Positions 6,085-21,154 of a DNA stretch of 32,000 bases are shown here, piece after piece. The notes beneath the pieces are model-generated. The model saw nothing but the letters and a program-made list of their open reading frames with translations, was not told the origin of the DNA and ran no database searches. Source of the stretch: Patescibacteria group bacterium (lineage in GTDB: Bacteria > Patescibacteriota > UBA1384 > XYA2-FULL-43-10); assembly GCA_041674405.1 (NCBI GenBank), contig JBAYVT010000001.1, forward strand, positions 1 to 32,000, written 5' to 3'. The position numbers and the translations under genes are program-made. Position 1 is the stretch's first letter. Each line of letters begins with the position of its first letter.

Positions 6085-6126
6085 ATTCAAAGATCCGCCT
6101 AGCTAGGCGGATCTTTGAATTTGTTG
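6085..6126 (+). terminator. Rho-independent terminator of the surface-protein gene
   Basis: Perfect 18-bp inverted repeat ATTCAAAGATCCGCCTAG/CTAGGCGGATCTTTGAAT (6085-6120) followed by TTTGTT. Confidence 0.8.
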
Positions 6127-6148
6127 CCCGTTATATTTTGTATGTAGA

Positions 6149-6177
6149 TTGACACACGATCAATATTGTGTTATTAT
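6149..6177 (+). promoter_or_regulatory. Near-consensus sigma70-type promoter of GC-rich island 1
   Basis: TTGACA (6149-6154), a 17-nt spacer ending in TGTGT, then TATTAT (6172-6177). Confidence 0.6.
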
Positions 6178-6220
6178 TCGCCAGTGTCGGACTACTACTT
6201 CGCAGCCATGGAGGATTATC

Positions 6221-6646
6221 TTGAAACCCGAAGAAGTGAAAGCATTGGCAAGTTGTTTTGTCAATCGGTGTGAGCAAGCGTTCGTCGACAATCCGCAGGG
6301 CCCGCAACTGCGCGTGTTCGAAAGAGGTGGACGATGGTATGCGGGTGTGATCCTGCGTATTTGCCGAGATATCGACACCTCAGTTGTGCTTGTAGTGCTA
6401 AGTGAGCATTTGCAGCTTGAGGTAGTCGAGGAAATCAAGCGAATGCGCCCCGGGGTCGATGTCGTGACGATCGCAAGATCTGTGAGAGTCAGAGTGTCAT
6501 CCTTTGTTGCGCGACTGGAATCCGGCGTATTGCTTTGCTTGACCGGAAGGCAAGCCGGTTTCCTCCAGTCGCTTCTCGTCACACTACCCGTGAGCGCAAT
6601 TCCCCTCGCACTCAGCCGCACAACCGAATCCGCAGCCGGCAACTAG
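6221..6646 (+). CDS. Orphan hypothetical protein (141 aa), GC-rich island 1
   Basis: A TTG start lies 6 nt after GGAGG (6211-6215). Codons are G-rich at position 1 and G/C-rich at position 3. The antisense ORF is S/T/R-rich and shadow-like. I recognise no family. The start codon and coding status are less certain than for the other islands. Confidence 0.45.
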   Translation: MKPEEVKALASCFVNRCEQAFVDNPQGPQLRVFERGGRWYAGVILRICRDIDTSVVLVVLSEHLQLEVVEEIKRMRPGVDVVTIARSVRVRVSSFVARLESGVLLCLTGRQAGFLQSLLVTLPVSAIPLALSRTTESAAGN

Positions 6647-6664
6647 CCGGTACTGAAGTACTGG

Positions 6665-6700
6665 GAGAGCACGGCTTCGCCGTGCTCCTTTCAGTTATTA
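6665..6700 (+). terminator. Hairpin terminator closing island 1
   Basis: GAGCACGG-CTTCG-CCGTGCTC stem-loop (6667-6687) followed by the weak U-tract CTTTCAGTTATT. Confidence 0.5.
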
Positions 6701-6715
6701 GATCGTTTTTAAGAG

Positions 6716-6928
6716 TTACATATGCAAAAGTGTAAAAACCTTGTAAATCAGAAGCGCGGGCCAAACGATTGCTTTCAGAAAGCCTAAGACCCCCCACCAA
6801 AACGTATCTGCTTGCTGAATAAAATACACTGCAGCGCCGATGAATGCCAGTCCGTAAGCACCACCAAATATTCCATTGGCGCTTCCCTTGCCTTTACTAA
6901 CCTTCAATTCACATTTTTCTTTTGCCAT
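6716..6928 (-). CDS. Small conserved two-TM membrane protein
   Basis: 70 aa with GIFGGAYGLAFIGAAVYFIQQADTFWWGVLGFLKAIVWPALLIY, which resembles a widespread small membrane-protein family. Host-like composition. Confidence 0.6.
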   Translation of the reverse strand: MAKEKCELKVSKGKGSANGIFGGAYGLAFIGAAVYFIQQADTFWWGVLGFLKAIVWPALLIYKVFTLLHM

Positions 6929-6988
6929 AATTCTCCCTTATTAATTATATTTAGAATATACATCACAAGTATTGGTGACGAAAATATT

Positions 6989-7171
6989 TTATTCTCCAAT
7001 ATCATCTTTCAATTTCCTTATAGACATTGCTCGGATATCTTTGAGAGCAATCACTCGCCCATCTCCAAGGAGAACCTTACCGCTTTTATGGTCAGCAAAT
7101 TTGCCTGTGGTAACCTCACCGGTCCGATACTTTATCCAGATAGTAGTACCTTTAGGGTAACTTGTATGCAT
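6989..7171 (-). CDS. Small hypothetical protein (60 aa)
   Basis: The ORF starts at the ATG at 7171, 2 nt after the stop of the upstream gene. No family recognised. Confidence 0.4.
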   Translation of the reverse strand: MHTSYPKGTTIWIKYRTGEVTTGKFADHKSGKVLLGDGRVIALKDIRAMSIRKLKDDIGE

Positions 7172-7173
7172 AT

Positions 7174-7884
7174 TTAGGGCTTTTTTGGAGTTATTGTTGC
7201 CAAACAATCTTTTTGGTCAAATGTTCCTATTCCAATCTGGCGTACAGACATGCCTTGATCGTCATTTACATCATGGATTAGGCCCTCATTGGTTGCAATT
7301 GTGCGCAAGCTAGAAACAAGAATGATTGCATTTTCACGTTGCTCTGGTGGTATTTCAGCAGTAAGACCATTTTTGGCTTCGTAATAATCACTCATCCAGT
7401 AATACTCTGGTTTCGGCGATTCAGAGGGTTGTGTAACCCGAAAAAACAACACGAGATCAGGATTTATTTTTTCATCACCAAGCGCTTCGAGGTTAACTTG
7501 ATATCCAGTCTCACTTTGCCTTACTTGTCCATCGTTATGAGGTGTTTCGGGTATAGTGACCTCTTTACCCAAGAAACCGCTTACATCTCCACCCCATCTT
7601 TTTTTACGCGCTTTATAAGCAAAATCTGAAAAAGCCATTGAATGAGCAATCAGTTCTGCCATTCTATTATCGGAAGATCTGATATTCTCGGGCAATGATT
7701 CGTAAAGGTCCGGATCTTCAAAATACTCCGCCACCATGGGGTTTATTATTATTCCTTGAGCTTTCAAAAAATCACAAATCTTTAATACCTGTTCTTCTGC
7801 TTTTTTCTCACGATCAATAGGAGGCAATTCTGCGCTATTGAAAGGAGATTGTTCAACACTACCGTAGTCATTTGCTTTTCTCAT
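7174..7884 (-). CDS. Hypothetical protein (236 aa)
   Basis: Long ORF with host-like composition, tightly coupled to the downstream small ORF. No motif recognised. Confidence 0.55.
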   Translation of the reverse strand: MRKANDYGSVEQSPFNSAELPPIDREKKAEEQVLKICDFLKAQGIIINPMVAEYFEDPDLYESLPENIRSSDNRMAELIAHSMAFSDFAYKARKKRWGGDVSGFLGKEVTIPETPHNDGQVRQSETGYQVNLEALGDEKINPDLVLFFRVTQPSESPKPEYYWMSDYYEAKNGLTAEIPPEQRENAIILVSSLRTIATNEGLIHDVNDDQGMSVRQIGIGTFDQKDCLATITPKKP

Positions 7885-7961
7885 ACTATCCTTTTATTTG
7901 GCTATTAAGACCATGCCGGTAATAATTAAACATATTGCTAAAAATTCCGTTCGCCAGGAAT

Positions 7962-8021
7962 AAAAAAGTAATTCAGTTCACATTTATATTCTCATAATAT
8001 GAAAAATAATTGAACTGGAAT
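7962..8021 (-). terminator. Possible terminator of typA (large-loop hairpin)
   Basis: On the minus strand ATTCCAGTTCA...TGAACTGAAT forms a stem of about 10 bp with one bulge and a loop of about 30 nt, followed by ACTTTTTT. Confidence 0.35.
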
Positions 8022-8029
8022 GCCTGAAT

Positions 8030-9841
8030 TTAGTTCTTTTTTGCCCGGTAGCGTTCTGCAGCGGTGAGGAGTTTTTTGCGCATACGCAGGGATTGTGGGG
8101 TTACCTCAAGTAGTTCATCGTCTTCAAGAAAATCGATGCACTGCTCGAGAGACATTTTTGTATGAGGAGTTAAGATGGTTGCAATATCCGAATTCGAAGC
8201 GCGTACATTGGATAATTTCTTTTCCTTGGTAACGTTGATATCGAGGTCGTCTTCGCGGGAATTTAGCCCCACGATCATCCCAGCGTAAACATCTGTTTGA
8301 GGTGGGATAAAGGTGATTCCTCTCTGCTGGGCGATGTTTAAGCCATAAGTTACGGCTTTGCCAGATTCAAAGGCGATCATTACGCCGTTTCGAAGTTTTG
8401 GAATTGCTGCCCCAACTTTTTCATAGCGCAAAAAGATTGAGTTGATCACTGCTGTTCCTTTAGAAAGTGTCACCAAAGTATTGCGAAGGCCGAGTGTGCC
8501 GCGGGTTGATATCTCAAAAACCAGCCTTGTTGTGGAGTCTGAGTTTTGTGATTGGTGAATTAATATTCCTCGACGTCTGCTGATTTCGCCAATTACCGAA
8601 CTTGCAAATTTATCATCGACGTCGATGGTGAGTTCTTCGATTGGCTCGCAGGTTATTCCGTCAATTTCTCTGGTGATAACTTGGGGTTTGCCGACTTGAA
8701 GCTCGAATCCTTCACGGCGAAGGTTTTCGATAAACACCGATAGGTGGAGTTCACCTCTGCCGGAAATAATATAATTCCCGTCTGCAGCGACATGGAATCG
8801 CATCGCAATATTTGTCTCGAGCTCTTTCATTATTCGCTCGAGTAATTGCCGCAAGGTTACAAACTTGCCTTCGCGTCCGGCGAAAGGTGAAGTATTGGCG
8901 TACATCGAAATTGAAAGCGTAGGCTCCTCGATTGCCATTGAAGGAACGATGTCGATCTCTCCGGGGTCGCAGATTGTGTCGCCGATTGAAACTTTCGAAA
9001 GGCCGGCAATTGAAACAATATCGCCAGATAAGGCTTCCTTGACCTCAATTTTTCTTAGTCCTGCATTTTGAAATATTTTTTCCGCTTTTCCGCTCTGGAC
9101 AGCTCCCTCTTCGTTCGCTAAAACAACATTTTGGCTGGTGGAAATTTTCCCCCGGATTATTTTACCGATTGCGTATTTGCCCAAGAAATTATCGTAGCTG
9201 AGGGCAGAGACCAACATTTGAAACGGCTTGTCGTCGTCTTTTTGCGGCTCTGGTATATACTTAACTATTCCATCCATCACTGGGGTAAGATCTGCGGGAG
9301 AGGTAAAGTCTGCCGGCATTTTTTCCCAAGATTTTCCTTCCCGCCCGATTGCATAATAGATCGGAAAATCGAGCTCGCTATCATCTTTTGCAAGTTCTAG
9401 AAATAGGTCATAAGTTTTATTCAAGGTATTTTCGATATCAGCGTTATTTTTATCGATCTTATTTACGACAACGATAATTTTAAGGCCAATTTCGAGCGCC
9501 TTTTTAAGGACAAACTTGGTCTGGGGCATTGGCCCCTCTTTGGCGTCAATCACCAAGATAGCGCCGTCTGCCATATTCAGCGTTCGCTCGACCTCTCCGG
9601 CGAAATCCGCGTGTCCCGGAGTGTCAATAATATTTATTTTCACTCCCTTGTATTCGATAGAAGTATTTTTGGCAAGAATCGTAATTCCCCGCTCGCGCTC
9701 CTGATCGTTCGAATCTAAAATCAGAGTTTCCGACATTAAGGCCTCATTCTCACGGAATGTTTTTGACTGCTTCAAAAATCCATCAACAAGGGTGGTTTTG
9801 CCATGGTCAACGTGAGCGATTATTGCGACATTTTTTATCAT
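8030..9841 (-). CDS. typA: Translational GTPase TypA/BipA
   Basis: G1 AHVDHGKTTL, G3 DTPGHADF, G4 NKID, and EF-G-like domain order with the TypA C-terminal domain. The start is set at MIKNVAIIAHVDHGKT. The 13 upstream codons of the track ORF lie in a dispersed repeat. Confidence 0.95.
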   Translation of the reverse strand: MIKNVAIIAHVDHGKTTLVDGFLKQSKTFRENEALMSETLILDSNDQERERGITILAKNTSIEYKGVKINIIDTPGHADFAGEVERTLNMADGAILVIDAKEGPMPQTKFVLKKALEIGLKIIVVVNKIDKNNADIENTLNKTYDLFLELAKDDSELDFPIYYAIGREGKSWEKMPADFTSPADLTPVMDGIVKYIPEPQKDDDKPFQMLVSALSYDNFLGKYAIGKIIRGKISTSQNVVLANEEGAVQSGKAEKIFQNAGLRKIEVKEALSGDIVSIAGLSKVSIGDTICDPGEIDIVPSMAIEEPTLSISMYANTSPFAGREGKFVTLRQLLERIMKELETNIAMRFHVAADGNYIISGRGELHLSVFIENLRREGFELQVGKPQVITREIDGITCEPIEELTIDVDDKFASSVIGEISRRRGILIHQSQNSDSTTRLVFEISTRGTLGLRNTLVTLSKGTAVINSIFLRYEKVGAAIPKLRNGVMIAFESGKAVTYGLNIAQQRGITFIPPQTDVYAGMIVGLNSREDDLDINVTKEKKLSNVRASNSDIATILTPHTKMSLEQCIDFLEDDELLEVTPQSLRMRKKLLTAAERYRAKKN

Positions 9842-9853
9842 ATCAATCCTCTT

Positions 9854-9874
9854 GCCCTGAGCGAGGTCGAAGGG
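9854..9874 (+). repeat. 21-nt dispersed repeat, copy A
   Basis: GCCCTGAGCGAGGTCGAAGGG matches the reverse complement of 13053-13073 at 20 of 21 positions. Confidence 0.7.
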
Positions 9875-9898
9875 CAACATTTCTTAATTTCATATTAT

Positions 9899-11155
9899 CT
9901 AGTTTGCTTCGACAAAAGTGAGCGCAAATCCCTTATTATTCCCTCTTCCAGTGCGGCCGATCCGGTGAATATAGTCATTATAGGTCTGGGGAATTGTGTA
10001 ATTGATAACATGCGAGACATTACTGATGTCAAGTCCGCGCGCGGCGACATCTGTGGCAACAAGAATTTGAATTTGGTCATCGCGAAATTTTGATAGCGCC
10101 TTCTGGCGTTGGTTTTGGCGCTTGTCTCCGTGGATAGAATCGGCTCGAAATCCACTCTCTGCGAGATTTTTAGTGAGTTTTTCCACATCGCGCTTGGTCT
10201 CTGAGAAAATAAGGACCTTTTTGGAGCCTTCTTTTGATAAAATATCTGTCAATCGATTGAACTTATTATCAGCGTGCACTTTTACAATATCTTGGTCGAC
10301 ATTTGCCGCTGTCTCACCAGTGATGGTTTTTACAATGACAGGGTTAATTAAAAATTCACGGACAAGAGTCTCGATTTTTATCGGTAGCGTTGCAGAGAAA
10401 AACAGCGATTGACGTTTGTCTGGAAGCTCGGCCAGAATTCGTTTAATTTCATCGACAAAGCCCATATCGAGCATCCGATCGATTTCATCGAGAACAATAT
10501 TTTGAAAAAATGAAAAATTAATATTGGCCCGGTCTTTTAGATCCTTGAGACGTCCGGGAGTACCAATGACGAAATTGGGATGGCTGCGGAGATCTGATAT
10601 CTGGCGGTAGATAGGTACGCCGCCGACGCAAATTGCCGAATATATTCCCATGCCTTTGGCAAATTTGCGAAATTCGACATTTATCTGCTGGGCAAGTTCG
10701 CGAGTTGGCGCAATGATAAGAACTTTTTGATTCTTGTCGCGAAAGCATTTATCGATTAAAGGTAGCAAAAATGCCGCTGTCTTCCCAGTCCCCGTATTGG
10801 CAAGTCCTAGAATATCGCGACCGGACATAACATGCCCGATCGATTGGTCTTGAATTGGAGTTGGAGTTTCGTAACCGATTTCCTTCAAGTTCATATTAAT
10901 TTTTTGTGAGAAAGAAAAATCAGCAAAATTGTGAATAATTTTTACGTGATTCGTGGCGGTGTTTGGAACTGCCTTTTTTACAAAGCGCTGAATATCAATC
11001 ACTTCACCCCTGTTGTGTCGACGAGAATTTTGTGAGTTTGAGTAGCGCGGACGTGAACTGAATTTTCCGTGAGCAGGCTTACTAAAATTTGGTTTTCCGA
11101 ACCGGGAAAATCCACGATCAAAAGAACGTTTTTGGTGAGATCTAAAATTTTGCAT
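9899..11155 (-). CDS. DEAD-box ATP-dependent RNA helicase
   Basis: Motif I ANTGTGKTAAF, Ia PTRELA, II VLDEIDRM (a DEID variant), III SAT and VI HRIGRTGR. There is a basic N-terminal extension. Confidence 0.95.
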   Translation of the reverse strand: MQNFRSHQKRSFDRGFSRFGKPNFSKPAHGKFSSRPRYSNSQNSRRHNRGEVIDIQRFVKKAVPNTATNHVKIIHNFADFSFSQKINMNLKEIGYETPTPIQDQSIGHVMSGRDILGLANTGTGKTAAFLLPLIDKCFRDKNQKVLIIAPTRELAQQINVEFRKFAKGMGIYSAICVGGVPIYRQISDLRSHPNFVIGTPGRLKDLKDRANINFSFFQNIVLDEIDRMLDMGFVDEIKRILAELPDKRQSLFFSATLPIKIETLVREFLINPVIVKTITGETAANVDQDIVKVHADNKFNRLTDILSKEGSKKVLIFSETKRDVEKLTKNLAESGFRADSIHGDKRQNQRQKALSKFRDDQIQILVATDVAARGLDISNVSHVINYTIPQTYNDYIHRIGRTGRGNNKGFALTFVEAN

Positions 11156-11416
11156 ACAATTTCCTACGCGAGATTTCGCGTTAATATTAAAACTTCGAAT
11201 AGCTCTTTAAGAACGTCGAAGTTTTAATTCGGAAATCTAAAGAACGATTTCGAGACTTCGAAAGTATATCATTAATTAGTATTTAAGTCAAGGATTGTAT
11301 CTCGATGAATTAAGAGGTTGTAAGCTTGATGATTGCTCAAGTTGTACCAGTATGAATTGAAAATAATCAATTTCTAAAGGTTAAAACCAATGCGGGCCAA
11401 TTAAAACACAAATAAA

Positions 11417-11483
11417 AAGACCAGAGGAATTAAATAAATTAATTGCTCTGGTCTTGCTCCGACAAACGTCGTCGGAGCACCAG
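11417..11483 (-). terminator. Tandem hairpins terminating the island-2 gene at 11513-11983
   Basis: On the minus strand GCTCCGAC-gacgttt-GTCGGAGC is followed by AAGACCAGAG-(19-nt loop)-CTCTGGTCTT and then TTTTATTTG. Confidence 0.55.
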
Positions 11484-11512
11484 TACCACCTCCAGTTCAC
11501 CAAGACTTGACG

Positions 11513-11983
11513 CTACAGCGCCGGCGGCTGCGGCATGCCGCAGCCAATCATTACGATACCCACGCTGCCTGCGGGTGCAGCCTCCATGATGCGCTCGACG
11601 GTGCACTGCGGGCAGGTGCATGTGGACTTGTCCCTCGTCCAGACCTTCCAACCTGCCGCGACTCCGTAGTGCCGCTCGCCGAAAAGGCCGAAGACAGCCT
11701 TCATCTCGTAGTCGTAGATGTCCGTGATGAGCTTCACCCGCGCTGCATGCTCGAGGCACTGGCGCAGGAAGTCCTTGTTGTCGTCTGTGTCCTGTTCCTC
11801 GATCTCATCGAGTTTCTTCAAGATGCCCTCGGCCTCCGGCCGGAAGCTCTCGATGAGGCTGTACAGGCGCTTCAGCTCCTCGGGCAGGTCCCCGATCACA
11901 TTGGCGTTCTCCGGGATCGGACCCTCGGGCTCGATTAGCTCAACTACTCCCATGCCAGCCAGTACGTCCTGAATCTTTAACAT
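11513..11983 (-). CDS. Orphan hypothetical protein (156 aa) with a CxCxxC motif, GC-rich island 2
   Basis: The ATG at 11983 lies 5 nt after AAGGTGA. Codon third positions are very G/C-rich. Acidic helical N-terminal half. C-terminal CTCPQC plus GCGMPQPP. No family recognised. Confidence 0.7.
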   Translation of the reverse strand: MLKIQDVLAGMGVVELIEPEGPIPENANVIGDLPEELKRLYSLIESFRPEAEGILKKLDEIEEQDTDDNKDFLRQCLEHAARVKLITDIYDYEMKAVFGLFGERHYGVAAGWKVWTRDKSTCTCPQCTVERIMEAAPAGSVGIVMIGCGMPQPPAL

Positions 11984-12038
11984 CGACATCACCTTTATTT
12001 TCACTGCCGATCGTTATCAGTCAGTGCCCCCTTGCCAC

Positions 12039-12088
12039 CTTTCGGGAGCAAATAATCGGAAATAATTCCAAACATTTGCTCCCGAAAG
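12039..12088 (-). promoter_or_regulatory. Strong 5'-UTR hairpin between promoter and RBS of the 11513-11983 gene
   Basis: Perfect 15-bp arms CTTTCGGGAGCAAAT (12039-12053) and ATTTGCTCCCGAAAG (12074-12088). The 20-nt loop contains a nested GGAA-ATAA-TTCC mini-hairpin. No U-tract follows on either strand. Confidence 0.6.
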
Positions 12089-12096
12089 ATTGAATA

Positions 12097-12125
12097 ATAT
12101 TAACATATTAATTCTGATCTGTCAA
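12097..12125 (-). promoter_or_regulatory. Near-consensus sigma70-type promoter for the 11513-11983 gene
   Basis: On the minus strand TTGACA (12125-12120), a 17-nt spacer ending in ATGT, then TAATAT (12102-12097). Confidence 0.6.
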
Positions 12126-12208
12126 CGATCGTGAATTGTAGTGTTTCTTGCCTTCGGTTGGCATAATCACACAATATACTTAAATTACAACCCTCTTAAT
12201 CAAAGAAC

Positions 12209-12226
12209 GAACCGGCACGCCGATTC
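12209..12226 (-). terminator. Possible terminator of the 12256-12891 gene
   Basis: On the minus strand GAATCGG-CGTG-CCGGTTC (one G-U pair) is followed by GTTCTTTGATT. Confidence 0.35.
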
Positions 12227-12255
12227 GCTCAATGATCATCCCCTCTTTTCCAGTT

Positions 12256-12891
12256 CTAGTGGCTCCTGCCCCCTCGGCCTCGGTCCTTTGCGCCGCGCGT
12301 ATCCTTGCCCTGAAGAGCAAGGCGCTTCTGCTTGTCGGCGCGCCTCTTCTTTTGCTCGTCGGTCGGCGATTTCTTCTTGCCCAAGATTCGCTCCTGGGTC
12401 GGCGATTTCCTCGCTTTCTCCTTGGCAAGAAGCGCGCGAACTTCGCGCTTAACCCAGCCATCAAGGCGGTCCAGGTGGACATCCCGTTCCTCCACGCAGA
12501 CGACCTGGAAGAGAAGCGGATCGGTCTTCTGGATGGAAACGCATACCTGCGTGTAGCATCCGTTCCGGTGGTAGATGACGCGGCCGGCGGTGATGAAGCA
12601 CACCGACTGCGGCTCCTTGTCCGGGTTGGTTGCGGTTGTGCTCGAGGCAATTCCCTCCTTCTGGTCGTCCAGGTGGATGCGGTCCGTATTTGTGGGTACG
12701 CTCACATCCATCAGGTTGACGAAGAGTCTCGCCTTGGGGATCCGCGCCATAGCTTGAGGAATCCGATACATCCCGTTGCCCTGGTCGGCAAGCTTGACGA
12801 AGAGCCGCTGCCCGACTACCAAGCAGGCAAGCCTGTGATTGTGGATAATGGCGGCATTGCCATTGTTCCGTGAAACCGCGAAATACAGCAT
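12256..12891 (-). CDS. Orphan hypothetical protein (211 aa) with a K/R-rich C-terminal tail, GC-rich island 2
   Basis: The ATG at 12891 lies 5 nt after GGAGG. A globular N-terminal region of about 150 aa is followed by the tail KEKARKSPTQERILGKKKSPTDEQKKRRADKQKRLALQGKDTRGAKDRGRGGRSH. The tail contains a 12-codon-spaced KSPT repeat, encoded by the 13-nt direct repeat GGTCGGCGATTTC at 12361 and 12397. Confidence 0.7.
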   Translation of the reverse strand: MLYFAVSRNNGNAAIIHNHRLACLVVGQRLFVKLADQGNGMYRIPQAMARIPKARLFVNLMDVSVPTNTDRIHLDDQKEGIASSTTATNPDKEPQSVCFITAGRVIYHRNGCYTQVCVSIQKTDPLLFQVVCVEERDVHLDRLDGWVKREVRALLAKEKARKSPTQERILGKKKSPTDEQKKRRADKQKRLALQGKDTRGAKDRGRGGRSH

Positions 12892-12929
12892 TTTTTCCTC
12901 CTGAGTATTGGTGTGATTGCGGCGATATT

Positions 12930-12958
12930 GTTTTAACATAAATTGTTTAGTTTGTAAA
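12930..12958 (-). promoter_or_regulatory. Sigma70-type promoter for the 12256-12891 gene
   Basis: On the minus strand TTTACA (12958-12953), a 17-nt spacer ending in ATGT, then TAAAAC (12935-12930). Confidence 0.45.
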
Positions 12959-12980
12959 CCTTTAAAAAGGATGTAAACAC

Positions 12981-13073: not shown

Positions 13074-13077
13074 GAGA

Positions 13078-15726: not shown

Positions 15727-15836
15727 AGTAGATTCCTATTTAATAATGACGAAATTATATTAGCAAAAAATTATTTTAAGATCAAATATCCTTTATTTAT
15801 AACATTCCCAAATATTTGAGATATCTGATCAAATGA

Positions 15837-15865
15837 TAGACAAATCCGGTAAAATATGTTAAAAA
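15837..15865 (+). promoter_or_regulatory. Candidate sigma70-type promoter of GC-rich island 3
   Basis: TAGACA (15837-15842), a 17-nt spacer ending in ATGT, then TAAAAA (15860-15865). Weaker than the other island promoters. Confidence 0.35.
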
Positions 15866-15904
15866 AGATTGCGCACATCATCCAGCACCCAACAGGAGAA
15901 AACC

Positions 15905-16690
15905 ATGATCCCGATGTACCTGAAGGATATTCCGATCGGTCCACATGTGGGTAAGGTGGTTGAAGAGTTCGATTCCGACACAGAGACACGCTACAGCATC
16001 CTGTCGGGCGTGTTCAACAACCAGGGATATATCCTCTCCCGCGAGGATGTAGAGGAAGAGTTCGGCAAGAACTCGTGCCTCCTTGACTTCATTTCACACG
16101 TTCATCTGCGCGAGCAGATGGCTGGATTAACCTTGTGGCTCAAGACTTTCGTCGCAGAAGTGAGAGGCGAAGGCGCTGCTCGTGTCATGTTTCCCGAATT
16201 TGAAGAGCACAACGCACGAATACACTTGTTGCGAAGCGAGTGGATTCGCCACGAGGCCATTCGGGAGGCTACCAACGACGCGCTGAAAGCCCTGGCGGAA
16301 TGCATGCGATGGTTCAACATTCAGATGGTGGCGGGATGGATCCAGCGCACCCTGACGGATGTGCTGGAACAGATGGAAATCTGCATGGATTTCGATGCAT
16401 TCGAAGTGCCGCGGCAGTGTTCGTTGCTCGACGATCTGGCGTATCGTATGGGCAGAAGCGAGATGCGGTCGTCATGCGCCCGCGCCTACAACAGCCTGGC
16501 TGTCGCCTGTGAGTCGAGCCCGATCTTCAAAGACGTGGTGCTTCTTCCTCCCGAAAAGATTGTTCGTCTCGGACAGTGGCGCATGGGGCTGATCCAAGAT
16601 CCGGGTCTTGTCCCAGAAGAGAAGCCCGAGGAGGACGAGGACGATTACGCCCTGAACGAATCCGGCATATTCGTGCCGAAGAAGAAGTGA
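15905..16690 (+). CDS. Orphan hypothetical protein (261 aa), GC-rich island 3
   Basis: The ATG at 15905 lies 6 nt after AGGAG (15894-15898). Codons are GC3-rich. The protein is helical-looking and acidic, with the tail PEEKPEEDEDDYALNESGIFVPKKK. No family recognised. Confidence 0.7.
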   Translation: MIPMYLKDIPIGPHVGKVVEEFDSDTETRYSILSGVFNNQGYILSREDVEEEFGKNSCLLDFISHVHLREQMAGLTLWLKTFVAEVRGEGAARVMFPEFEEHNARIHLLRSEWIRHEAIREATNDALKALAECMRWFNIQMVAGWIQRTLTDVLEQMEICMDFDAFEVPRQCSLLDDLAYRMGRSEMRSSCARAYNSLAVACESSPIFKDVVLLPPEKIVRLGQWRMGLIQDPGLVPEEKPEEDEDDYALNESGIFVPKKK

Positions 16691-16708
16691 TAGGAGGTGG
16701 AGAGCCGT

Positions 16709-16741
16709 GAGCGGACCTGTGTGGCCCGCTCTTGGCGTTTT
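16709..16741 (+). terminator. Hairpin terminator closing island 3
   Basis: GAGCGGACC-TGTGT-GGCCCGCTC (9-bp stem with one mismatch) followed by TTGGCGTTTT. Confidence 0.6.
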
Positions 16742-16745
16742 AAAA

Positions 16746-17219
16746 CTAATTAATTATAACCCCGCCGATGAAGTTCTGTGAGAATACGACTTCATCCTTA
16801 TATTCAATATATTCGTTGTCTGCAAAGTCTTCGATATTTCCAGTAAGTGCGCTAAAGTATTCAAAATTGCCATCATGAAAATGCTGGGGCCCACGGAAAG
16901 GTGATTCCGGATCCATCGCAAGAAGAGCCGTTTTTAAAAATTCGATCGTCTTTTTCGTGAGTTCTTTGTCGCCGTGGTGATCAAAAGCCATGCCACCGGC
17001 GTATGCCATTGCCCAAACAGGCTTGCCTTCGAAATAAACGATCTCCTGCCCAGGGGCGAAATAGTGTCCTGTATATGAATCGTGAAACAGCCAATCCCCT
17101 TCTTTGTATTCAATCTCGTCAAAACCTTGGCGCTGCGGTGAGACTTCATTGCCATCACCAGCGTAGCCGTTTTTATTGGCTTCGTATAAAAATTTTTTTA
17201 ATTCATCTAAATTAATCAT
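16746..17219 (-). CDS. DUF5680-like protein
   Basis: 157 aa. The pattern NGYAGDG...EIEYKEGDWLFHDSYTGHYFAPGQEIVYFEGKPVWAMAYAGG matches my recollection of DUF5680. Confidence 0.55.
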   Translation of the reverse strand: MINLDELKKFLYEANKNGYAGDGNEVSPQRQGFDEIEYKEGDWLFHDSYTGHYFAPGQEIVYFEGKPVWAMAYAGGMAFDHHGDKELTKKTIEFLKTALLAMDPESPFRGPQHFHDGNFEYFSALTGNIEDFADNEYIEYKDEVVFSQNFIGGVIIN

Positions 17220-17282
17220 GGCTGTTATTTGATCATTTATGTCGTCAAAAACTGAACGATCGTCGAAATTTCGACGATCAAT

Positions 17283-17561
17283 TTATTTTTTATTTTTTTC
17301 CCAAATAGATCTAAACCATGGCAAAGTTAGCGTCGAGAGCATAAATCCTACCGTCGGTACTATTGCATTTAGAAATGGCTGGTCAATTTTTATTGCTAAA
17401 AGATAAAGCGAAATTGCCAAGTAGGTAAAAACTGCGATAAGGATTCGCCTAGCCCAACTTGTTTCCCAGGCTTTATCGAGCTCTACACTTAAATTGCGAG
17501 ATTTGATCTTCACAATCTCGTCTTCAAGTTTTTGAACACGTTCATCTTTCATTAGTTTCAA
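17283..17561 (-). CDS. Small membrane protein (about 90 aa)
   Basis: An N-terminal coiled-coil-like segment is followed by two TM helices. The start is ambiguous (TTG at 17561 or ATG at 17552). Confidence 0.55.
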   Translation of the reverse strand: MKLMKDERVQKLEDEIVKIKSRNLSVELDKAWETSWARRILIAVFTYLAISLYLLAIKIDQPFLNAIVPTVGFMLSTLTLPWFRSIWEKNKK

Positions 17562-17609
17562 TCTACATTATTTCTAGACTGATATCAATTCGATTGCCAT
17601 TTTATTAGG

Positions 17610-17818
17610 GATATGAGGAGCTAGTTGCGAGGCGCCCCTCCTACCCCTAAAACCCCACCACCCGCACGCTAAAATTTGAATGATTTTCTGGCCGAAGCTC
17701 TTCGGGTATTTCAGTACCCGCTTTCAGCCCTAGAAATCCTACTATTTGAAAAATAGCCGTGTTTAATCTGTGGGCTGTACGTCGGTGTGGTTGAGGGCTC
17801 TTGTATGGCCGAAGCAGA
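17610..17818. ncRNA. Candidate structured non-coding element (class and strand unknown)
   Basis: A stretch of about 210 nt in a 292-nt intergenic region is more GC-rich than its flanks and has no ORF of 60 aa or more. Local hairpins include GGGTA-tttcag-TACCC, CTATTT-gaa-AAATAG and AGGAG...CTCCT. A long-range imperfect pairing joins 17645-17668 (CCCTAAAACCCCACCACCCGCACG) with 17781-17797. GGCCGAAGC occurs twice. Confidence 0.25.
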
Positions 17819-17853
17819 CTATTATTATTTATTAATTTATCTATAATTAAAAT

Positions 17854-19578
17854 ATGAAAAAGTATTTATTGAGTTTTGTGTTTGCACTAATCGTTATTTT
17901 TCCGATCAAGGCGTTGGCTCGGGACAATGTTGACTATTGGTATATCAAGAATTTTGATAGCAATATTACTATCAACAAGGATTCATCTTTAAGTATTGAT
18001 GAAAAAATCACTGCTGATTGCGGAGATTGCGTGGGGAAACATGGAATATTTAGAATGTTGCCTACTGTTTATTCGCCTGAATTAAATAAGACAAACAATC
18101 TGCATATCGAGCTTATTAGCATTACTAATTTTCAAGGACAACCATACAAATATCAAACCACTAATGATTACCGAGATCACACCATTACTTGGAAAATTGG
18201 TGATCCTAACACAACGGTATCTGGAATTAACGAATACGAGATTAAATATAAAGTATTGAATGGGATCAGAAGTGGAAATTCCGATTTTGACGAATTCTAT
18301 TGGAATCTCAACGGTAATTTTTGGGATCTACAGACTGATAAATTTACCGCTTATATTAAATTTCCTGATGGTGCGAATAAGGGCAATACTACGACCAATT
18401 TATATAGTGGCAAATATGGCATGAGCACAAATAACACTGCTTCGATGTCATGGATCGATAATCAGAATTTAATGGTCGAAAGTCCAAATGATAGGATACT
18501 GGTCGAAAAGGAAGGAATTACTCTGTCAGCAACATTTCCGAAAAACATCATTGTGCCCTACAAGCCAACGTTTCTTGACCTTTACGGTGTGTATTTATAT
18601 CTGCTAATTCCTCTTTTGGTGCTAATGTTATGCATATTATTTTGGTCGAAATTTGGCAAGGACCCGAAGATTAATCCAACAGTAGTTCCGGAATTTGAAA
18701 TACCGGAAAAAATGTCGCCAATGTCACTCGGGATGGTTGAAGCAGATGGCCAATTAAAAAGCCAATTCATCTCAGCTACGATTATTAATTTAGCGGTAAA
18801 AGGTGCTCTAAAGATAGAAGAGATTCCCAAAAAAGGAATATTTGGCCATGTGGATTATAAAATGATTAAGCTCGAAAAACCGAAAGATGCACTCACGGAC
18901 GATGAAGCCGAACTTCTATCCGACATATTTAATAGCGAAGATACAAAACTTCTTTCGGACATGAAAAATAAATTTTATGTAAATATTCCCGGCCTTACTT
19001 CAAGGGTTCAAGATAATTTGGTCGCAAAAAAATATCTATGGAAGAGTAGCCGCGCAATGCAGGGCGCTTTTATCAGTATCGCGGCAGTACTTACTGGTTT
19101 GGGTATTGGTTTTGGATATTTGGGATGGATGGTAATAATCTCTGGAATATTATCAGGAATAATATTATTTATTTTTTCATTCTTGATGCGAAGGCGAACA
19201 ATCGAGGGGGCAAAATTCAATCTTCGTGTAAAAGGGCTTCGAATGTATATGGAGACAGCCGAAAAATATCGAGCGAAGTTTAATGAGAAAGAAAATATCT
19301 TCGAAAAATTTTTACCCTACGCCATCATGTTTGGCATAACTACGCTCTGGATTGAGAAAATGAAGGCGATTTATGGAGAGAAATATATTACCAGCTACAT
19401 GCCGATTTGGTATGCAGGATCTATCAGCCATTTTGATCCCGATACTTTCAACCAGACTATTTCGAACATGTCATCAAATATGGCATCAACTATTAATTCT
19501 TCACCTTCGAGCTCCGGCTCGGGCGGCGGCGGTTTTTCTGGTGGCGGAGGCGGAGGCGGCGGAGGCGGAGGTTGGTAG
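17854..19578 (+). CDS. DUF2207 domain membrane protein
   Basis: 574 aa with a signal peptide and the N-terminal pattern YWYIKNFDSNITINKDSSLSIDEKI...GKHGIFRMLP. It has multiple TM helices and the Gly-rich C-terminal tail GGGGFSGGGGGGGGGGGW typical of the family. Confidence 0.85.
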   Translation: MKKYLLSFVFALIVIFPIKALARDNVDYWYIKNFDSNITINKDSSLSIDEKITADCGDCVGKHGIFRMLPTVYSPELNKTNNLHIELISITNFQGQPYKYQTTNDYRDHTITWKIGDPNTTVSGINEYEIKYKVLNGIRSGNSDFDEFYWNLNGNFWDLQTDKFTAYIKFPDGANKGNTTTNLYSGKYGMSTNNTASMSWIDNQNLMVESPNDRILVEKEGITLSATFPKNIIVPYKPTFLDLYGVYLYLLIPLLVLMLCILFWSKFGKDPKINPTVVPEFEIPEKMSPMSLGMVEADGQLKSQFISATIINLAVKGALKIEEIPKKGIFGHVDYKMIKLEKPKDALTDDEAELLSDIFNSEDTKLLSDMKNKFYVNIPGLTSRVQDNLVAKKYLWKSSRAMQGAFISIAAVLTGLGIGFGYLGWMVIISGILSGIILFIFSFLMRRRTIEGAKFNLRVKGLRMYMETAEKYRAKFNEKENIFEKFLPYAIMFGITTLWIEKMKAIYGEKYITSYMPIWYAGSISHFDPDTFNQTISNMSSNMASTINSSPSSSGSGGGGFSGGGGGGGGGGGW

Positions 19579-19656
19579 GCCAAATACTTCGCCTAAATCC
19601 TAATTTCTAATTACTAATTTCTAAACATAATCGGAAATTGTTCATTCAATCATATA

Positions 19657-19683
19657 CAAAAAATGCCCCTTGGGCATTTTTTG
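19657..19683. terminator. Bidirectional rho-independent terminator between convergent genes
   Basis: AAAAAATGCCC-CTT-GGGCATTTTTT. Confidence 0.85.
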
Positions 19684-19698
19684 TATATTTAGCGTTGA

Positions 19699-19953
19699 TT
19701 ATGCGGCAAATAATTTGGTTCCTTCTTTGACCTTTTTGCTAACCTTCATTCCAACTTCGTCGCCTTTTTTTACCTCAGCTACATCCTCGTGGTCTTTCTG
19801 CATCGATTCCACTTTTTGGGTAAAGTCGGCACCATGGCCCATAAAATGAACTTCATCGCCATCTTTACAGCTTACCGAAAACTTTATCACCGCCACCCCG
19901 ATGTGGTCAAAATAGTGCGTTACTTCTCCGATCTCCTTTTCATCATTCGCCAT
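19699..19953 (-). CDS. Small translation-elongation-factor-like beta-barrel protein
   Basis: 84 aa. IGEVTHYFDHIGVAVIKF...GDEVHFMGHGADFTQKVESMQKDHEDVAEVKKGDEVGMKV resembles the stand-alone EF-Tu-domain-2-like proteins of archaea and CPR. Confidence 0.6.
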   Translation of the reverse strand: MANDEKEIGEVTHYFDHIGVAVIKFSVSCKDGDEVHFMGHGADFTQKVESMQKDHEDVAEVKKGDEVGMKVSKKVKEGTKLFAA

Positions 19954-20055
19954 ATGACTCCTTAGGTTAGAGACTAAGAATACATAAATATTATAGCATT
20001 GTTGTCAAACAAATCACTGTGCAAGTGAATATATCAATTATATTTTATTGCAGAG

Positions 20056-20084
20056 TTGACTACTATACAGAAATGTGTTAGAAC
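20056..20084 (+). promoter_or_regulatory. Sigma70-type promoter of GC-rich island 4 (plus-strand gene)
   Basis: TTGACT (20056-20061), a 17-nt spacer ending in TGTGT, then TAGAAC (20079-20084). Confidence 0.45.
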
Positions 20085-20125
20085 TGATCAGTGATTGTTA
20101 TCTACACGGAGGGGGTTTTGCTTCG

Positions 20126-20551
20126 ATGGCTGAGACGTACTTGTTTCGTGGCCGTCCGCATTGCCGGATTTCTGGTCTGGGTGTAGCGCACCTTAAGGCA
20201 AATGCCGGCAATACACTGGCGTACGTAAGGCTGGGCATCGTCCTCGAAGACGGACTGACGCAGGAGGGCGTCAGTGCTACAGGGCGGTACTACGACGGTG
20301 AAGGGAAAACAAGGGAACGCGGTCATGCAGACAATGCTAGCGTCATTACAGTTCTCGCGATGCTAAATGACACCTGCAGGAATCTCAGCCGCGAAGCGAA
20401 TGTCAAACATGCCCATTTCAACTTCGACGGTAAGGAAGTTGAGGTCGGCATTGAGTTCCATGCGCGCAGAAATGTCGGTCAGGCATTTTTGTCCAGCGTA
20501 GCGGATCTCTTCGAGGAGTCGTTTGCTGCCGTCAGTGCGGCGGTAGCCTAG
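20126..20551 (+). CDS. Orphan hypothetical protein (141 aa), GC-rich island 4
   Basis: The ATG at 20126 is downstream of GGAGGGGG (20108-20115), a rather long spacing. Composition is coding-like. No family recognised. Confidence 0.6.
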   Translation: MAETYLFRGRPHCRISGLGVAHLKANAGNTLAYVRLGIVLEDGLTQEGVSATGRYYDGEGKTRERGHADNASVITVLAMLNDTCRNLSREANVKHAHFNFDGKEVEVGIEFHARRNVGQAFLSSVADLFEESFAAVSAAVA

Positions 20552-20570
20552 ACGTGTGTGGGGGGAGAAT

Positions 20571-20606
20571 CAGGCGAGTGCTTTCGGGCGCTCGTCTGTT
20601 GGTTTT
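20571..20606 (+). terminator. Hairpin terminator of the 20126-20551 gene
   Basis: An 11-bp stem (CAGGCGAGTGC/GCGCTCGTCTG, two G-U pairs) with loop TTTCGG, followed by TTGGTTTT. Confidence 0.65.
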
Positions 20607-20714
20607 AAGATATTATTTTGTAAACTAAAATTATGATCTCTTGCAAGGAGATTATAGAAATATATAAAAAAATGATTTCGGATGCGCCAGTGCCTGTCGG
20701 GGCAAGACGCATAT

Positions 20715-21077
20715 TCAGCTCTCCTGGTCGAGCTCGAGGTTCTCGACCAGGGCCTGGAAGAGCATATCTCCAGGTGTCTGGGGACCCACATCTTTGCTGG
20801 TTTCGTAGAAGAAGCTATTGCCATCTTCCAGGGAAAGCTCCAGGTCAAGAACTCGTCGAAATTCCCCGTCACCATCGAGGTCAAGAATCTCGTACAAAGT
20901 GGTGATGAGGTCGGAGAGCTCTGATATATCGCAGAGCCGCTCCGGCATGACGAAACGCGAAGCCTGGAGTTGTGCCCGAATCTTGCTGACGAGCGACCGA
21001 TTACACCATGGCGACTCCTTAATGAACTCGTCAATGGCCATGTTGATCTTCACAGAGAGCGGTCTCTCTGGGATCAT
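20715..21077 (-). CDS. Orphan small acidic protein (120 aa) with a DxDxDG-like loop, GC-rich island 4
   Basis: The ATG at 21077 lies 9 nt after GGAGG (21091-21087 on the minus strand). The C-terminal half is strongly acidic (EILDLDGDGEFRRVLDLELSLEDG...ENLELDQES). It is convergent with the 20126-20551 gene. Confidence 0.65.
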   Translation of the reverse strand: MIPERPLSVKINMAIDEFIKESPWCNRSLVSKIRAQLQASRFVMPERLCDISELSDLITTLYEILDLDGDGEFRRVLDLELSLEDGNSFFYETSKDVGPQTPGDMLFQALVENLELDQES

Positions 21078-21154
21078 ACCTCAACACCTCCCTCATTTCA
21101 GGCTAGTACGACAAAAGTAGTATATAACAAAATATCAATTAATAGTACAGGTGA

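Follow-up and report, generated by a model that had tools for sequence, protein, structure and literature searches.

Phage morons, as described in HK97 and HK022 (PMC3594210), are single add-on genes with their own promoter and terminator, inserted between ordinary genes, with a GC content unlike that of their neighbours and a horizontal mode of spread. In groundwater Patescibacteria, acquired islands of novel, phylogenetically ambiguous sequence have been described, in which 61.6% of the genes have no assignable function and for which exchange is mainly within Patescibacteria. Individually transferred genes are described there too, and a wealth of horizontally gained genes without a known function is already published for this group (PMC12455944). 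Integron gene cassettes are small, mostly unannotatable single-ORF units of varied composition that turn over between related genomes. They lack promoters of their own, carry attC sites, lie in arrays beside the intI integrase and depend on Pc for their expression.

Here we describe six single-gene cassettes, P1 to P6, in a stretch of 32,000 nucleotides, rich in housekeeping genes, of the chromosome of an uncultivated, ultra-small Patescibacteria (CPR) bacterium (contig JBAYVT010000001.1, referred to as the window). The cassettes share the moron properties listed above; however, their carrier is a housekeeping chromosome segment and not a phage or prophage, and the searches gave no phage link for any family. 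They resemble the groundwater islands as acquired CPR regions of novel sequence, but they are one-gene units of 0.4-0.9 kb whereas those islands are multi-gene, and PMC12455944, as far as could be found, reports no uniform promoter and terminator anatomy, no ORF-restricted GC excess and no recurrent families of this kind. [quoted passage not shown] The features are as follows, all promoters being predicted.

6149..6695, plus strand: P1 cassette; CDS 6221-6646, TTG start, 141 aa, GC 0.55, GC3 0.57; promoter TTGACA 6149-6154, 17-nt spacer, TG-extended TATTAT 6172-6177; GGAGG 6210-6214; terminator hairpin 6667-6687.
11410..12125, minus strand: P2 cassette; CDS 11983-11513, 156 aa, GC 0.61, GC3 0.82; promoter TTGACA 12125-12120, 17-nt spacer, TG-extended TAATAT 12102-12097; structured leader; AAGGTG 11995-11990; double terminator hairpin 11479-11457 and 11455-11417, then a T-run.
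11984..12090, minus strand: P2 5' leader RNA; two-hairpin fold, conserved at three further P2-family genes.
12205..12958, minus strand: P3 cassette; CDS 12891-12256, 211 aa, pI 10.1, GC 0.59, GC3 0.76; promoter TTTACA 12958-12953, 17-nt spacer, TG-extended TAAAAC 12935-12930; GGAGG 12901-12897; terminator 12230-12205.
15837..16745, plus strand: P4 cassette; CDS 15905-16690, 261 aa, GC 0.55, GC3 0.69; promoter TAGACA 15837-15842, 17-nt spacer, TG-extended TAAAAA 15860-15865; AGGAG 15894-15898; terminator hairpin about 16704-16736, then a T-run.
20056..20606, plus strand: P5 cassette; CDS 20126-20551, 141 aa, GC 0.55, GC3 0.57; promoter TTGACT 20056-20061, 17-nt spacer, TG-extended TAGAAC 20079-20084; GGAGG 20108-20112; terminator 20571-20598.
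20667..21091, minus strand: P6 cassette; CDS 21077-20715, 120 aa, pI 4.2, GC 0.53, GC1/GC2/GC3 0.60/0.34/0.67; GGAGG 21091-21087; imperfect terminator 20712-20682, then a T-run.

Inspection of the sequence bore out the cassette structure proposed in the initial annotation (a ribosome binding site in all six genes, a -35/N17/-10 promoter in five and a clear terminator in five). P1-P5 each have a predicted -35 and a TG-extended -10 with exactly 17 nt between them; a Shine-Dalgarno sequence (GGAGG, AGGAG or AAGGTG) lies 5-9 nt ahead of the start codon in 6/6, and the hairpin terminator is clean in all except P6. An evident promoter was also looked for at P6 and none was convincing. As P6 comes immediately after the host WecG-family gene (21155-21994) and is read in the same direction, it may possibly be transcribed by read-through from that gene. 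The gene call of P5 is identical in the NCBI, JGI, Logan and ENA pipelines. The TTG start of P1 is supported by its sole relative, P0023 (34% identity), which aligns residue 1 to residue 1. In its own locus, L099, this relative has the same promoter type.

All six cassettes were placed in intergenic slots between intact, ordinary host genes, and this was confirmed. The reported lack of mobility functions also held: Pfam on every gene of the window gave no integrase, transposase, phage or plasmid gene, a search for direct or inverted repeats flanking the islands found none, and the sole tRNA is 7 kb distant from the islands. The closest relatives of the host (TypA <= 75%, PPDK <= 77%) have no synteny to the window.

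GC steps were measured in 100-bp windows and backbone statistics in 300-bp windows (527 backbone windows, mean GC 0.402, SD 0.05). The six CDSs have a GC of 0.53-0.61 and a GC3 of 0.57-0.82, compared to a backbone GC of 0.40; this is 2.7-4.1 SD over the backbone windows, 1.7% of which reach 0.53. At each island edge the GC climbs from 0.27-0.40 to 0.55-0.66 inside about 100 bp, and change-point estimation placed the junctions at 11445, 12050, 12208, 12834, 15871, 16738, 20105, 20603, 20679 and 21095; island 1 is less sharply bounded. The abrupt edges of the four GC-rich islands first reported, and the hand counts of G+C given with them (41/60, 23/60 and 26/60, exact on recount), were reproduced, as were the four islands with their six ORFs. 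In islands 2 and 4, AT-rich host-like spacers (about 12050-12208 and 20603-20679) split the GC-rich sequence into two blocks each, so the real unit is six blocks and not four. The GC excess is limited to CDS and terminator stem; AT-rich sequence makes up the promoters, the leaders and the spacers between cassettes. The island genes use G-ending as well as C-ending codons (CTG 30%, GTG 31%, GCG 28%, AAG 78%, GAG 66%), whereas the host's own GC3-elevated gene has C-ending codons only (ATC 80%, CTG 5%, GTG 2%). The GARP/FYMINK ratio of the island proteins is 0.79-2.1 versus 0.65 for the window backbone. The fifth GC peak, spanning 13941-15020, is internal to the host gene for pyruvate phosphate dikinase; its cause is a different one.

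Relatives of the six proteins were sought by an exhaustive HMMER search of 1.84 billion representative proteins. All relatives are distant: about 30 for P4, about 30 for P2, three for P3 and one for P1, with none for P5 and P6 in this search. The earlier description of the products as orphans is correct in that curated libraries give no match; 4/6 nevertheless belong to real, undescribed families. The full-length P4 relatives are 24-33% identical and share the motifs RSEWL, WFNxQxVA and a C-terminal GGIxVP. AlphaFold2 models P4 (pLDDT 92, pTM 0.85) as a helical bundle with a C-terminal beta-hairpin, for which there was no structural neighbour in PDB or BFVD and no known fold or family. The P2 family has 28-37% identity and the motifs GELPxELKxL, GWxVW and CxCPxC. 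P2 itself is modelled (pLDDT 88, pTM 0.76) as a helical-hairpin protein with a Cys knuckle; neither model nor protein matched a known fold or family. P3 and its three full-length relatives begin alike (MLYF type) and end in a conserved C-terminal tail rich in Lys/Arg, which suggests nucleic-acid binding.

The P2 leader has a 5'-terminal hairpin of about 24 bp, beginning no more than about 2 nt from the predicted transcription start, and a second helix (CACUG...CAGUG) with a variable inner stem. It is kept in register with the P2-family genes of three other loci (L088, L095 and L096), with compensatory changes at four pairs and fold z-scores of -5.3 to -6.8, and the sense strand gives the better fold (-47.9 versus -34.0 kcal/mol). 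A covariance model found these copies and nothing further in 1.0 Mb, and Rfam had no match at E <= 1. A hypervariable protein stands beside a conserved leader RNA. The ompA (E. coli 5' UTR), ermC and aprE leaders are mRNA stabilisers with a 5'-terminal stem-loop, an arrangement that protects against 5'-end-dependent decay, and the P2 leader likewise has its long hairpin at or next to the predicted 5' end. The likeness is positional only, with the P2 transcription start being a predicted one, and the conserved second helix sets the P2 leader apart from these stabilisers.

Where DNA could be recovered, relatives of P4, P2, P3 and P1 are found singly at 11 loci (five for P4, three for P2), each with different housekeeping neighbours and at unrelated positions in other CPR genomes. 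At every AT-rich locus recovered, the relative is a GC-rich single-gene island (gene GC 0.52-0.59, locus medians 0.35-0.48; 0.52 in the 2.3-kb L099 contig, the locus of P0023). L098, a contig of uniform GC 0.557, has a P4 relative aboard, so a GC-rich home exists. All other relatives with recoverable DNA are in AT-rich CPR genomes, which counts against import. Two related genomes (L088 and L095) are 70-96% identical over 11 orthologues, but their P2 genes are 34.8% identical with different neighbours. Both have the P2 cassette inside a variable segment that starts at tRNA-Asp, with repeated modules on either side; the window has none of these repeats. Among the ORFs of GC islands in related genomes, 5/24 code for ordinary enzymes or regulators and 19/24 are unannotatable, in agreement with published Patescibacteria surveys of horizontal transfer (PMC12455944). 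Compositional islands occur there at about 0.5 per 10 kb. Given this rate and the published acquired genes, calling the islands very unusual for a natural genome was an overstatement, although their density within 15 kb is unusual (Poisson P = 0.008 for four islands, 0.00016 for six cassettes).

The textbook appearance of the cassettes (consensus -35, 17-nt spacers, GGAGG, clean terminators), together with homologues missing at first, could point to contamination or, as the initial annotation had considered, to a chimeric assembly or a composite made by engineering or in silico. This reading is refuted, since the junctions are identical in at least four samples and three different pipelines (MEGAHIT/ENA, JGI and Logan). 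Window positions 1-21155 are 100% identical to ENA contig k141_1464549 (395,669 bp), and the Logan contigs from SRR6484325 and SRR22315508 and JGI 3300037067 have 99.98-100% identity to the window. All four span the island junctions, contig breaks fall at island edges in none of these assemblies, the six genes are also in the NCBI MAG (WC080_00050 to WC080_00125), and the composition contrast recurs for the same families in metagenomes unrelated to these. The GC-rich blocks might instead be structured non-coding RNA genes with spurious ORFs, as several long ORFs overlap on both strands of each island; this is the case in any GC-rich DNA. The chance of this is negligible, and for P2, P3 and P4 the reading is already refuted. 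Against it stand a strong three-base periodicity with GC3 far over GC2 (GC1/GC2/GC3 0.62/0.38/0.82 in P2 and 0.60/0.41/0.76 in P3; weakest in P1 and P5), protein-level families with conserved motifs and protein-like indel patterns, confident AlphaFold2 models, and Rfam without a match at the gathering threshold or E <= 1. The clustering in 15 kb and the common promoter style and composition would also suit dispersed parts of one undescribed multi-gene system (defence, anti-defence or toxin-immunity), another of the options raised at the outset. The different families never co-occur (INDEPENDENCE), which argues against one system: relatives of P1-P4, to which this result applies (P5 and P6 having none), stand alone, and neither the surrounding +-10 kb nor 0.92 Mb of related genomes contains a member of another island family. 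PADLOC gave no hit and every gene is separately terminated. One system is very improbable, and largely refuted for P2 and P4.

Morons derived from phage, or remnants of a degraded CPR prophage or other mobile element, would fit the anatomy (own promoter and terminator, deviant GC, add-on gene; PMC3594210) and the tRNA-Asp segment with its repeated modules in L088 and L095. We regard this as unlikely: besides the missing phage, integrase and plasmid genes and repeats in the window, PHROG gave no hits, tblastn no match in either 50,697 phage records or 72,556 plasmid records, IMG/VR motif scans no confirmed relative and BFVD no structural neighbour. A more serious alternative, although still an improbable one, is that these are resident cassette families of the CPR flexible pool, exchanged as promoter-leader-ORF-terminator units, in which GC-rich coding is held by selection (mRNA stability, translation) or by GC-biased gene conversion where loci are prone to recombination, and does not reflect a donor. 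It would account for the confinement of GC-richness to CDS and terminator stem and for the GC-type amino-acid signature in 25/25 P4 relatives and most P2 relatives, and most published transfers are Patescibacteria-to-Patescibacteria (PMC12455944). Between the three AT-rich CPR genomes compared, the AT-rich P2 promoter and leader are 75-84% identical in nucleotides with proteins at about 35%, which suggests long residence in the CPR pool and not fresh import. The GC3 of CPR-resident P4 copies (0.59-0.76) is not below that in GC-rich L098 (0.62), so there is no sign of amelioration. However, G- and C-ending codons and amino-acid usage are both shifted, typical of mutational background and not of translational selection; among the genes in the GC-rich islands of relatives are ordinary enzymes whose GC3 reaches 0.85, most simply imports; no known mechanism holds a GC3 of 0.7-0.8 in a 40% GC genome; and L098 provides a GC-rich contig with a P4 relative.

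Several acquisitions from GC-rich donors, also among the original options, is the one best supported by composition, the GC-rich islands elsewhere and L098. The islands are real CPR chromosome features made of six single-gene units, and we consider it somewhat probable that these units were acquired independently and horizontally from a pool of genes whose mutational background is GC-rich; against this, six cassettes in 15 kb are more clustered than independent insertion at the lineage-average rate. Each unit comprises a predicted near-consensus sigma-70 promoter with an extended -10 (none evident in P6), a Shine-Dalgarno sequence, a GC-rich ORF and an intrinsic terminator, and would have been added to an intergenic slot between housekeeping genes. 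As no mobility machinery is present, we infer that the units most likely entered through uptake of DNA and then illegitimate or short-homology recombination. The units would then be akin to phage morons in anatomy, that is, insulated and constitutively expressed add-on genes, with products predicted to be soluble cytoplasmic proteins. Our best guess for these products, a tentative one, is an accessory role in conflict or regulation, as suggested by the patchy distribution, the extreme divergence between close relatives, the variable-segment location and the strong stand-alone promoters.

The G+C content of the whole window is 41.7%, and the sliding-window profile has four regions at 0.55-0.66 with flanks at 0.27-0.40, the step falling within ~100 bp. 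The four islands of the initial annotation are thus present as compositional jumps, and its three hand counts of G+C were all exact on recount, but two of them, islands 2 and 4, are in fact pairs of GC-rich blocks, split by AT-rich spacers at about 12050-12208 and 20603-20679. Island 1 holds the ORF P1, island 2 P2 and P3, island 3 P4, and island 4 P5 and P6, with the following coding sequences:

6221-6646, plus strand, P1
11513-11983, minus strand, P2
12256-12891, minus strand, P3
15905-16690, plus strand, P4
20126-20551, plus strand, P5
20715-21077, minus strand, P6

The GC of these coding sequences is 0.53-0.61 against 0.40 for the backbone, i.e. 2.7-4.1 SD above the mean of 300-bp backbone windows. 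G+C at third codon positions (GC3) is 0.57-0.82, compared with 0.28-0.47 for backbone genes, and the periodicity is of the coding type. Each GC-rich block covers the coding sequence and the terminator stem, and the composition of the 50-150 nt ahead of it resembles that of the host. The density is above the average rate of the lineage, with a Poisson P of 0.008 for four islands and of 0.00016 for six cassettes in 15 kb. This excess may reflect a genome rich in islands throughout or a permissive hotspot in this stretch. A fifth GC peak, at 13941-15020, falls within the host gene for pyruvate phosphate dikinase (PPDK) and has a different cause, namely a preference for C-ending codons only.

Native contigs were recovered by exact-protein look-ups with the backbone genes on either side of the islands. 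From ENA came a MEGAHIT contig of 395,669 bp that matches window 1-21155 at 100% identity; from SRR6484325, two Logan contigs with 100% identity across 15027-28309 and 6093-14065; from SRR22315508, another Logan contig, with 100% identity across 20286-22734; and from JGI 3300037067, a contig with a single mismatch in 5,105 bp. These assemblies span all junctions, with contig ends never at island edges, and an NCBI MAG labelled 'Patescibacteria group bacterium' has the same six genes (within WC080_00050 to WC080_00125). The earlier option of an in-silico or chimeric composite is therefore refuted, and the suspicion of an artefact is lifted from a public genome of the Patescibacteria (CPR).

The backbone is a CPR chromosome carrying TypA, a DEAD-box helicase, PPDK, DUF5680, DUF2207, WecG, GT4 glycosyltransferases, MreB, MurA, a sortase and heliorhodopsin. 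Relatives were sought via PPDK in a genome collection and via TypA in metagenomes. The closest are related at species level (PPDK 77%, TypA 75% identity) and, at no more than these identities, are not syntenic with the window around the slots that hold the islands. One locus, L092, has no island after WecG. The PPDK gene itself (13078-15726, minus strand; GC 0.49, GC3 0.54) has its nearest non-CPR relatives in Clostridia, at about 61% identity. Cofactor-independent phosphoglycerate mutase is encoded twice in tandem, at 28424-30025 and 30026-31591, by paralogues with Metalloenzyme and iPGM_N domains, the second being much more divergent. The heliorhodopsin gene is at 1703-2464 (minus strand); homologues of 64-71% identity are found near TypA in three related loci (L102, L107, L117), some adjoining the DEAD helicase.

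The initial annotation had described the islands as gene cassettes with their own signals, which holds in full for five cassettes and in part for P6. A -35 hexamer, a spacer of exactly 17 nt and a TG-extended -10 are predicted in 5/6 cassettes, a Shine-Dalgarno site before all six genes, and clean intrinsic terminators in 5/6; for P6 no promoter was identified in the sequence, and its terminator is imperfect. In the loci examined, exact TTGACA-17-TG-extended promoters are almost exclusively located ahead of GC-rich cassette genes. By the same kind of prediction, the genes in the neighbouring pairs P3/P2 and P5/P6 have promoters of their own or converge, unlike the co-transcribed operon of a toxin-antitoxin pair. 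Judged by these signals, the six cassettes are insulated single-gene units, probably expressed strongly and constitutively.

Public annotations differ in start calls: P1 (6221-6646) is given as 110 or 141 aa, P2 (11513-12004) as 156 or 163 aa, and P3 (12256-12939) as 211 or 227 aa. The alignments of the families favour the 141-aa form of P1, with a TTG start, and the 211-aa form of P3, and ribosome-binding-site spacing supports 156 aa for P2.

No repeats flanking the islands were found, and the sole tRNA is 7 kb away from them. The earlier statement that integrase and transposase genes are lacking was borne out for the whole window, which holds no mobility gene. Two other elements were observed. 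A perfect palindrome of 20+20 nt at 6083-6122 (AAATTCAAAGATCCGCCTAG / CTAGGCGGATCTTTGAATTT) lies between the gene for a surface protein of 374 aa, which it directly follows, and cassette P1; it probably terminates transcription in both directions. A GC-rich inverted repeat of 30 nt (87% complementary) has copies at 9845-9874 and 13053-13082, bracketing the DEAD helicase and island 2. The former lies just upstream of TypA and reads as 'PFDLAQGK' in an ORF extended spuriously at its N-terminus, whereas TypA itself probably starts at 9841 (603 aa); the latter overlaps the PPDK 3' end with its stop codon and the sequence just past it.

Searches of Pfam, PADLOC, PHROGs and NCBIfam with the six proteins gave nothing significant (best PADLOC match E = 0.013, 12 bits), and PADLOC, Pfam and NCBIfam gave no match to known anti-phage defence systems or toxin-antitoxin pairs. 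A word-indexed homology search with the six proteins concatenated returned nothing, not even the query proteins, and one with the A1 profile two matches only. Such a search is insensitive for families at ~30% identity, so the resulting 'no homologues' was wrong and was corrected by an exhaustive HMMER search. In this phmmer search of 1.84 billion representative proteins, P4 has about 30 full-length relatives (24-33% identity), P2 about 30 (28-37%), P3 three, and P1 one (34%, E = 6e-13); P5 and P6 have none. The description as orphans thus stands for P5 and P6, and for all six in curated libraries, but not for P1 to P4.

Conservation in the alignments is of a protein-like kind. The P4 alignment has the motifs RSEWL and WFNxQxVA and, after an acidic linker, GGIxVP at the C-terminus, and the P2 alignment GELPxELKxL, GWxVW and CxCPxC. 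P3 relatives share the N-terminus and a Lys/Arg-rich tail, and this conserved basic tail suggests nucleic-acid binding. From shallow alignments, AlphaFold2 gave models with pLDDT 92 and pTM 0.85 for P4, and pLDDT 88 and pTM 0.76 for P2. Foldseek found no neighbour of either model in PDB, nor of P4, the one model searched there, in BFVD (best values E = 0.3-0.7, TM < 0.4). Profile searches of Pfam with all family members, and of PDB sequences, returned coiled-coil noise only, and none of the six proteins has a signal peptide or membrane segment. Family members are rare, nearly all being unnamed singletons on 1-3 contigs from metagenomes only. No family has a phage or plasmid link in PHROGs, phage and plasmid records or IMG/VR, or for P4 in BFVD; the IMG/VR pattern scans, which confirmed no relative, used family sub-alignments, the full alignments being too divergent as patterns. 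The mean GARP/FYMINK ratio is 1.2 across all relatives, compared with 0.55 +- 0.14 for CPR backbone proteins, and is at least 0.83 in 25/25 P4 relatives.

The DNA recovered comprises five P4 loci, three P2 loci and one locus each for P3 and P1. Wherever the locus is AT-rich, the family member forms a compositional island: gene GC is 0.52-0.59 and GC3 0.59-0.76, whereas the locus medians are 0.35-0.48 (0.52 for L099, a contig of 2.3 kb). Each relative stands alone between differing housekeeping genes, e.g. PBP/RadA or S51 peptidase/ABC transporter, with no second island family within +-10 kb in any recovered locus. Searches of 80 related loci anchored on TypA, 0.92 Mb in all, found no family member with tblastn, phmmer or a profile HMM. 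The earlier suggestion that the islands are dispersed parts of one accessory system is accordingly not supported: the island families never occur together in either set of loci, and solitary relatives, absent from the related loci, argue against a single system.

The only home found for any island family that is 'native' in composition is L098 (NCBI GCA_034680565.1, JAXOUH010028519.1, 17931-36859), a contig of uniform GC 0.557 which its P4 relative matches in composition. Its genes lie far apart, are for the most part unannotated, share one strand with few exceptions and are each apparently monocistronic, and PHROGs and plasmid blast gave no phage or plasmid signal. The P4-family gene adjoins a DUF5680 gene both here (7326-7859 and 8087-8929, co-directional) and in the window (15905-16690 and 16746-17219, convergent), an arrangement absent from the four other P4 loci. 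The adjacency could be fortuitous or could reflect a weak connection in function; literature on DUF5680 gave nothing informative.

Further GC-rich, unannotatable genes lie beside family members, namely single genes in L087 (3226-3648, minus strand) and L092 (7633-8232, minus strand) and two genes in L095 (12032-12980 and 13186-13671). None is related to the six proteins of the window, and the L087 gene (140 aa) has an exact TTGACA-17-TG-extended promoter. Related CPR genomes have GC islands at about 0.5 per 10 kb, and 19 of 24 island ORFs are unannotatable. The other five are ordinary genes, an ASCH gene and the following four, candidate cases of metabolic genes imported from GC-rich donors:

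L130 6195-7913, L-fucose isomerase, GC3 0.85
L145 4330-5256, OMP decarboxylase, GC3 0.85
L136 4869-5528, phosphoribosyltransferase
L130 14292-14747, response regulator

The P2 transcript is conserved as a whole across the window and the CPR loci L088 and L095/L096, with an invariant TTGACA and the TG-extended -10 in register. P2-family genes are preceded by a two-hairpin 5' leader RNA with compensatory base changes:

11984-12090, minus strand, window, P2 5' leader RNA
9888-10003, L088, P2 5' leader RNA
9891-10003, L095, P2 5' leader RNA
5558-5670, L096, P2 5' leader RNA

Fold z-scores of the leader are -5.3 to -6.8, the sense strand folding better, and a double 3' hairpin is common to the window and L088. 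The non-coding parts of the cassette are AT-rich, and leader DNA identity is 75-84% compared with about 35% for the protein. Its 5'-terminal hairpin suggests a role in mRNA stabilisation or autoregulation. A covariance model found no additional copies of the leader, Rfam gave nothing at E <= 1 for the islands and leader, and at gathering threshold the window contains tRNA-Leu only. No shared cassette ends were found for P4, P3 and P1.

L088 and L095 are closely related, with 70-96% identity in eleven orthologues and 84% in promoter plus leader, against 34.8% in the P2 proteins. The two loci differ around the P2 cassette, whose genes have differing neighbours in a variable segment starting at tRNA-Asp. 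Within this segment, repeated modules bracket individual cassettes, in the order GTTCTAACATCGTTCG, a variable stem, CTATCTCCCGCCA and then the terminator AAAAAGCTAGTCTAGGACTAGTCTTTTT:

L088 9700-9800, 10585-10630 and 13980-14120, repeated modules
L095 8515-8610, 9670-9800, 10610-10765 and 11911-11939, repeated modules

The modules may serve in recombination or mark boundaries; the window lacks them.

The composition of the islands was compared with that of PPDK. PPDK uses ATC at 80% and GGC at 51%, but CTG at 5%, GTG at 2% and GCG at 6%, a C-ending excess that looks like translational selection. For the islands that explanation was rejected, as their enrichment extends to G-ending codons (CTG 30%, GTG 31%, GCG 28%, AAG 78%, GAG 66%, CAG 82%). 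The island amino acids are shifted too, Arg making up 7.7% (against 3.6%), Lys 4.8% (against 7.9%) and Ile 5.5% (against 9.4%). Going by codon and residue usage, the two features are the signature of a GC-rich mutational background. Atypical codon and amino-acid usage and the patchy distribution of the families support horizontal acquisition, and with it the earlier proposal of several separate acquisitions. With recombinase, att site and repeats all lacking, entry would have been by DNA uptake followed by non-site-specific recombination. An alternative, which we consider improbable, is that the cassettes belong to CPR families of long standing, with a coding composition that is somehow maintained. 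It is kept alive by observations at odds with a simple recent import, namely by the conservation of the P2 transcript, with AT-rich non-coding parts, across the window, L088 and L095/L096, by the divergence of the P2 protein under a conserved promoter and leader in L088/L095, and by CPR-resident P4 copies with GC3 not below that of the L098 copy.

A tentative guess at function, still on the doubtful side, is conflict or accessory regulation, because of the patchy distribution, the hyper-divergence between close relatives, the location in variable regions and the strong promoters. It is also conceivable, if rather unlikely, that AT-rich Patescibacteria share a pool of promoter-leader-ORF-terminator mini-cassettes with ORFs that are GC-rich in any host. 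These would be moved without mobility genes, e.g. by natural transformation and recombination at conserved non-coding ends, and their new-fold proteins, hypervariable between close relatives, would serve conflict or host interaction. The P2 family would then be the exemplar, with its conserved leader and 35% protein identity against 70-96% for housekeeping genes.

Among known systems, a moron, i.e. an add-on phage gene with its own promoter and terminator, resembles the cassettes in these predicted signals (each in 5/6) and in deviant composition. The phage or prophage residence of morons (PMC3594210) is missing, as the backbone consists of housekeeping genes. The cassettes would work like a moron but stand outside that class, so we call them moron-like. 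Integron gene cassettes have attC, a promoterless ORF and an intI-adjacent array. All are absent here, where the units are dispersed, 5/6 have predicted promoters and there is no integrase; no imperfect inverted repeats common to cassette ends were found. Nor does the window have the integrase or transposase, tRNA adjacency, direct repeats or multi-gene extent above 10 kb of classical genomic islands, although the P2 relatives in L088/L095 do lie in a tRNA-Asp-initiated variable segment with repeats.

The general phenomenon is already known in Patescibacteria. A survey of 125 aquifer genomes described hundreds of islands and transferred genes, with 61.6% of acquired-region genes lacking an assignable function and exchange mostly within the phylum (PMC12455944); the GC islands of the related genomes fit this survey. 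New here are the moron-like anatomy on a chromosome, the conserved leader RNA and two undescribed protein families of ~30 members each, with confident models and a fold without known match. The six presumed orphans thereby also yield two smaller families and a candidate cis-regulatory leader. The contrast between a GC-rich ORF and an AT-rich control region recurs in several CPR genomes, which gives a handle for finding more such cassettes and makes it testable whether the composition is imported or maintained. As CPR genomes are tiny and their owners depend on other cells, genes added to them and strongly expressed are good leads on how these bacteria deal with hosts, phages and one another.
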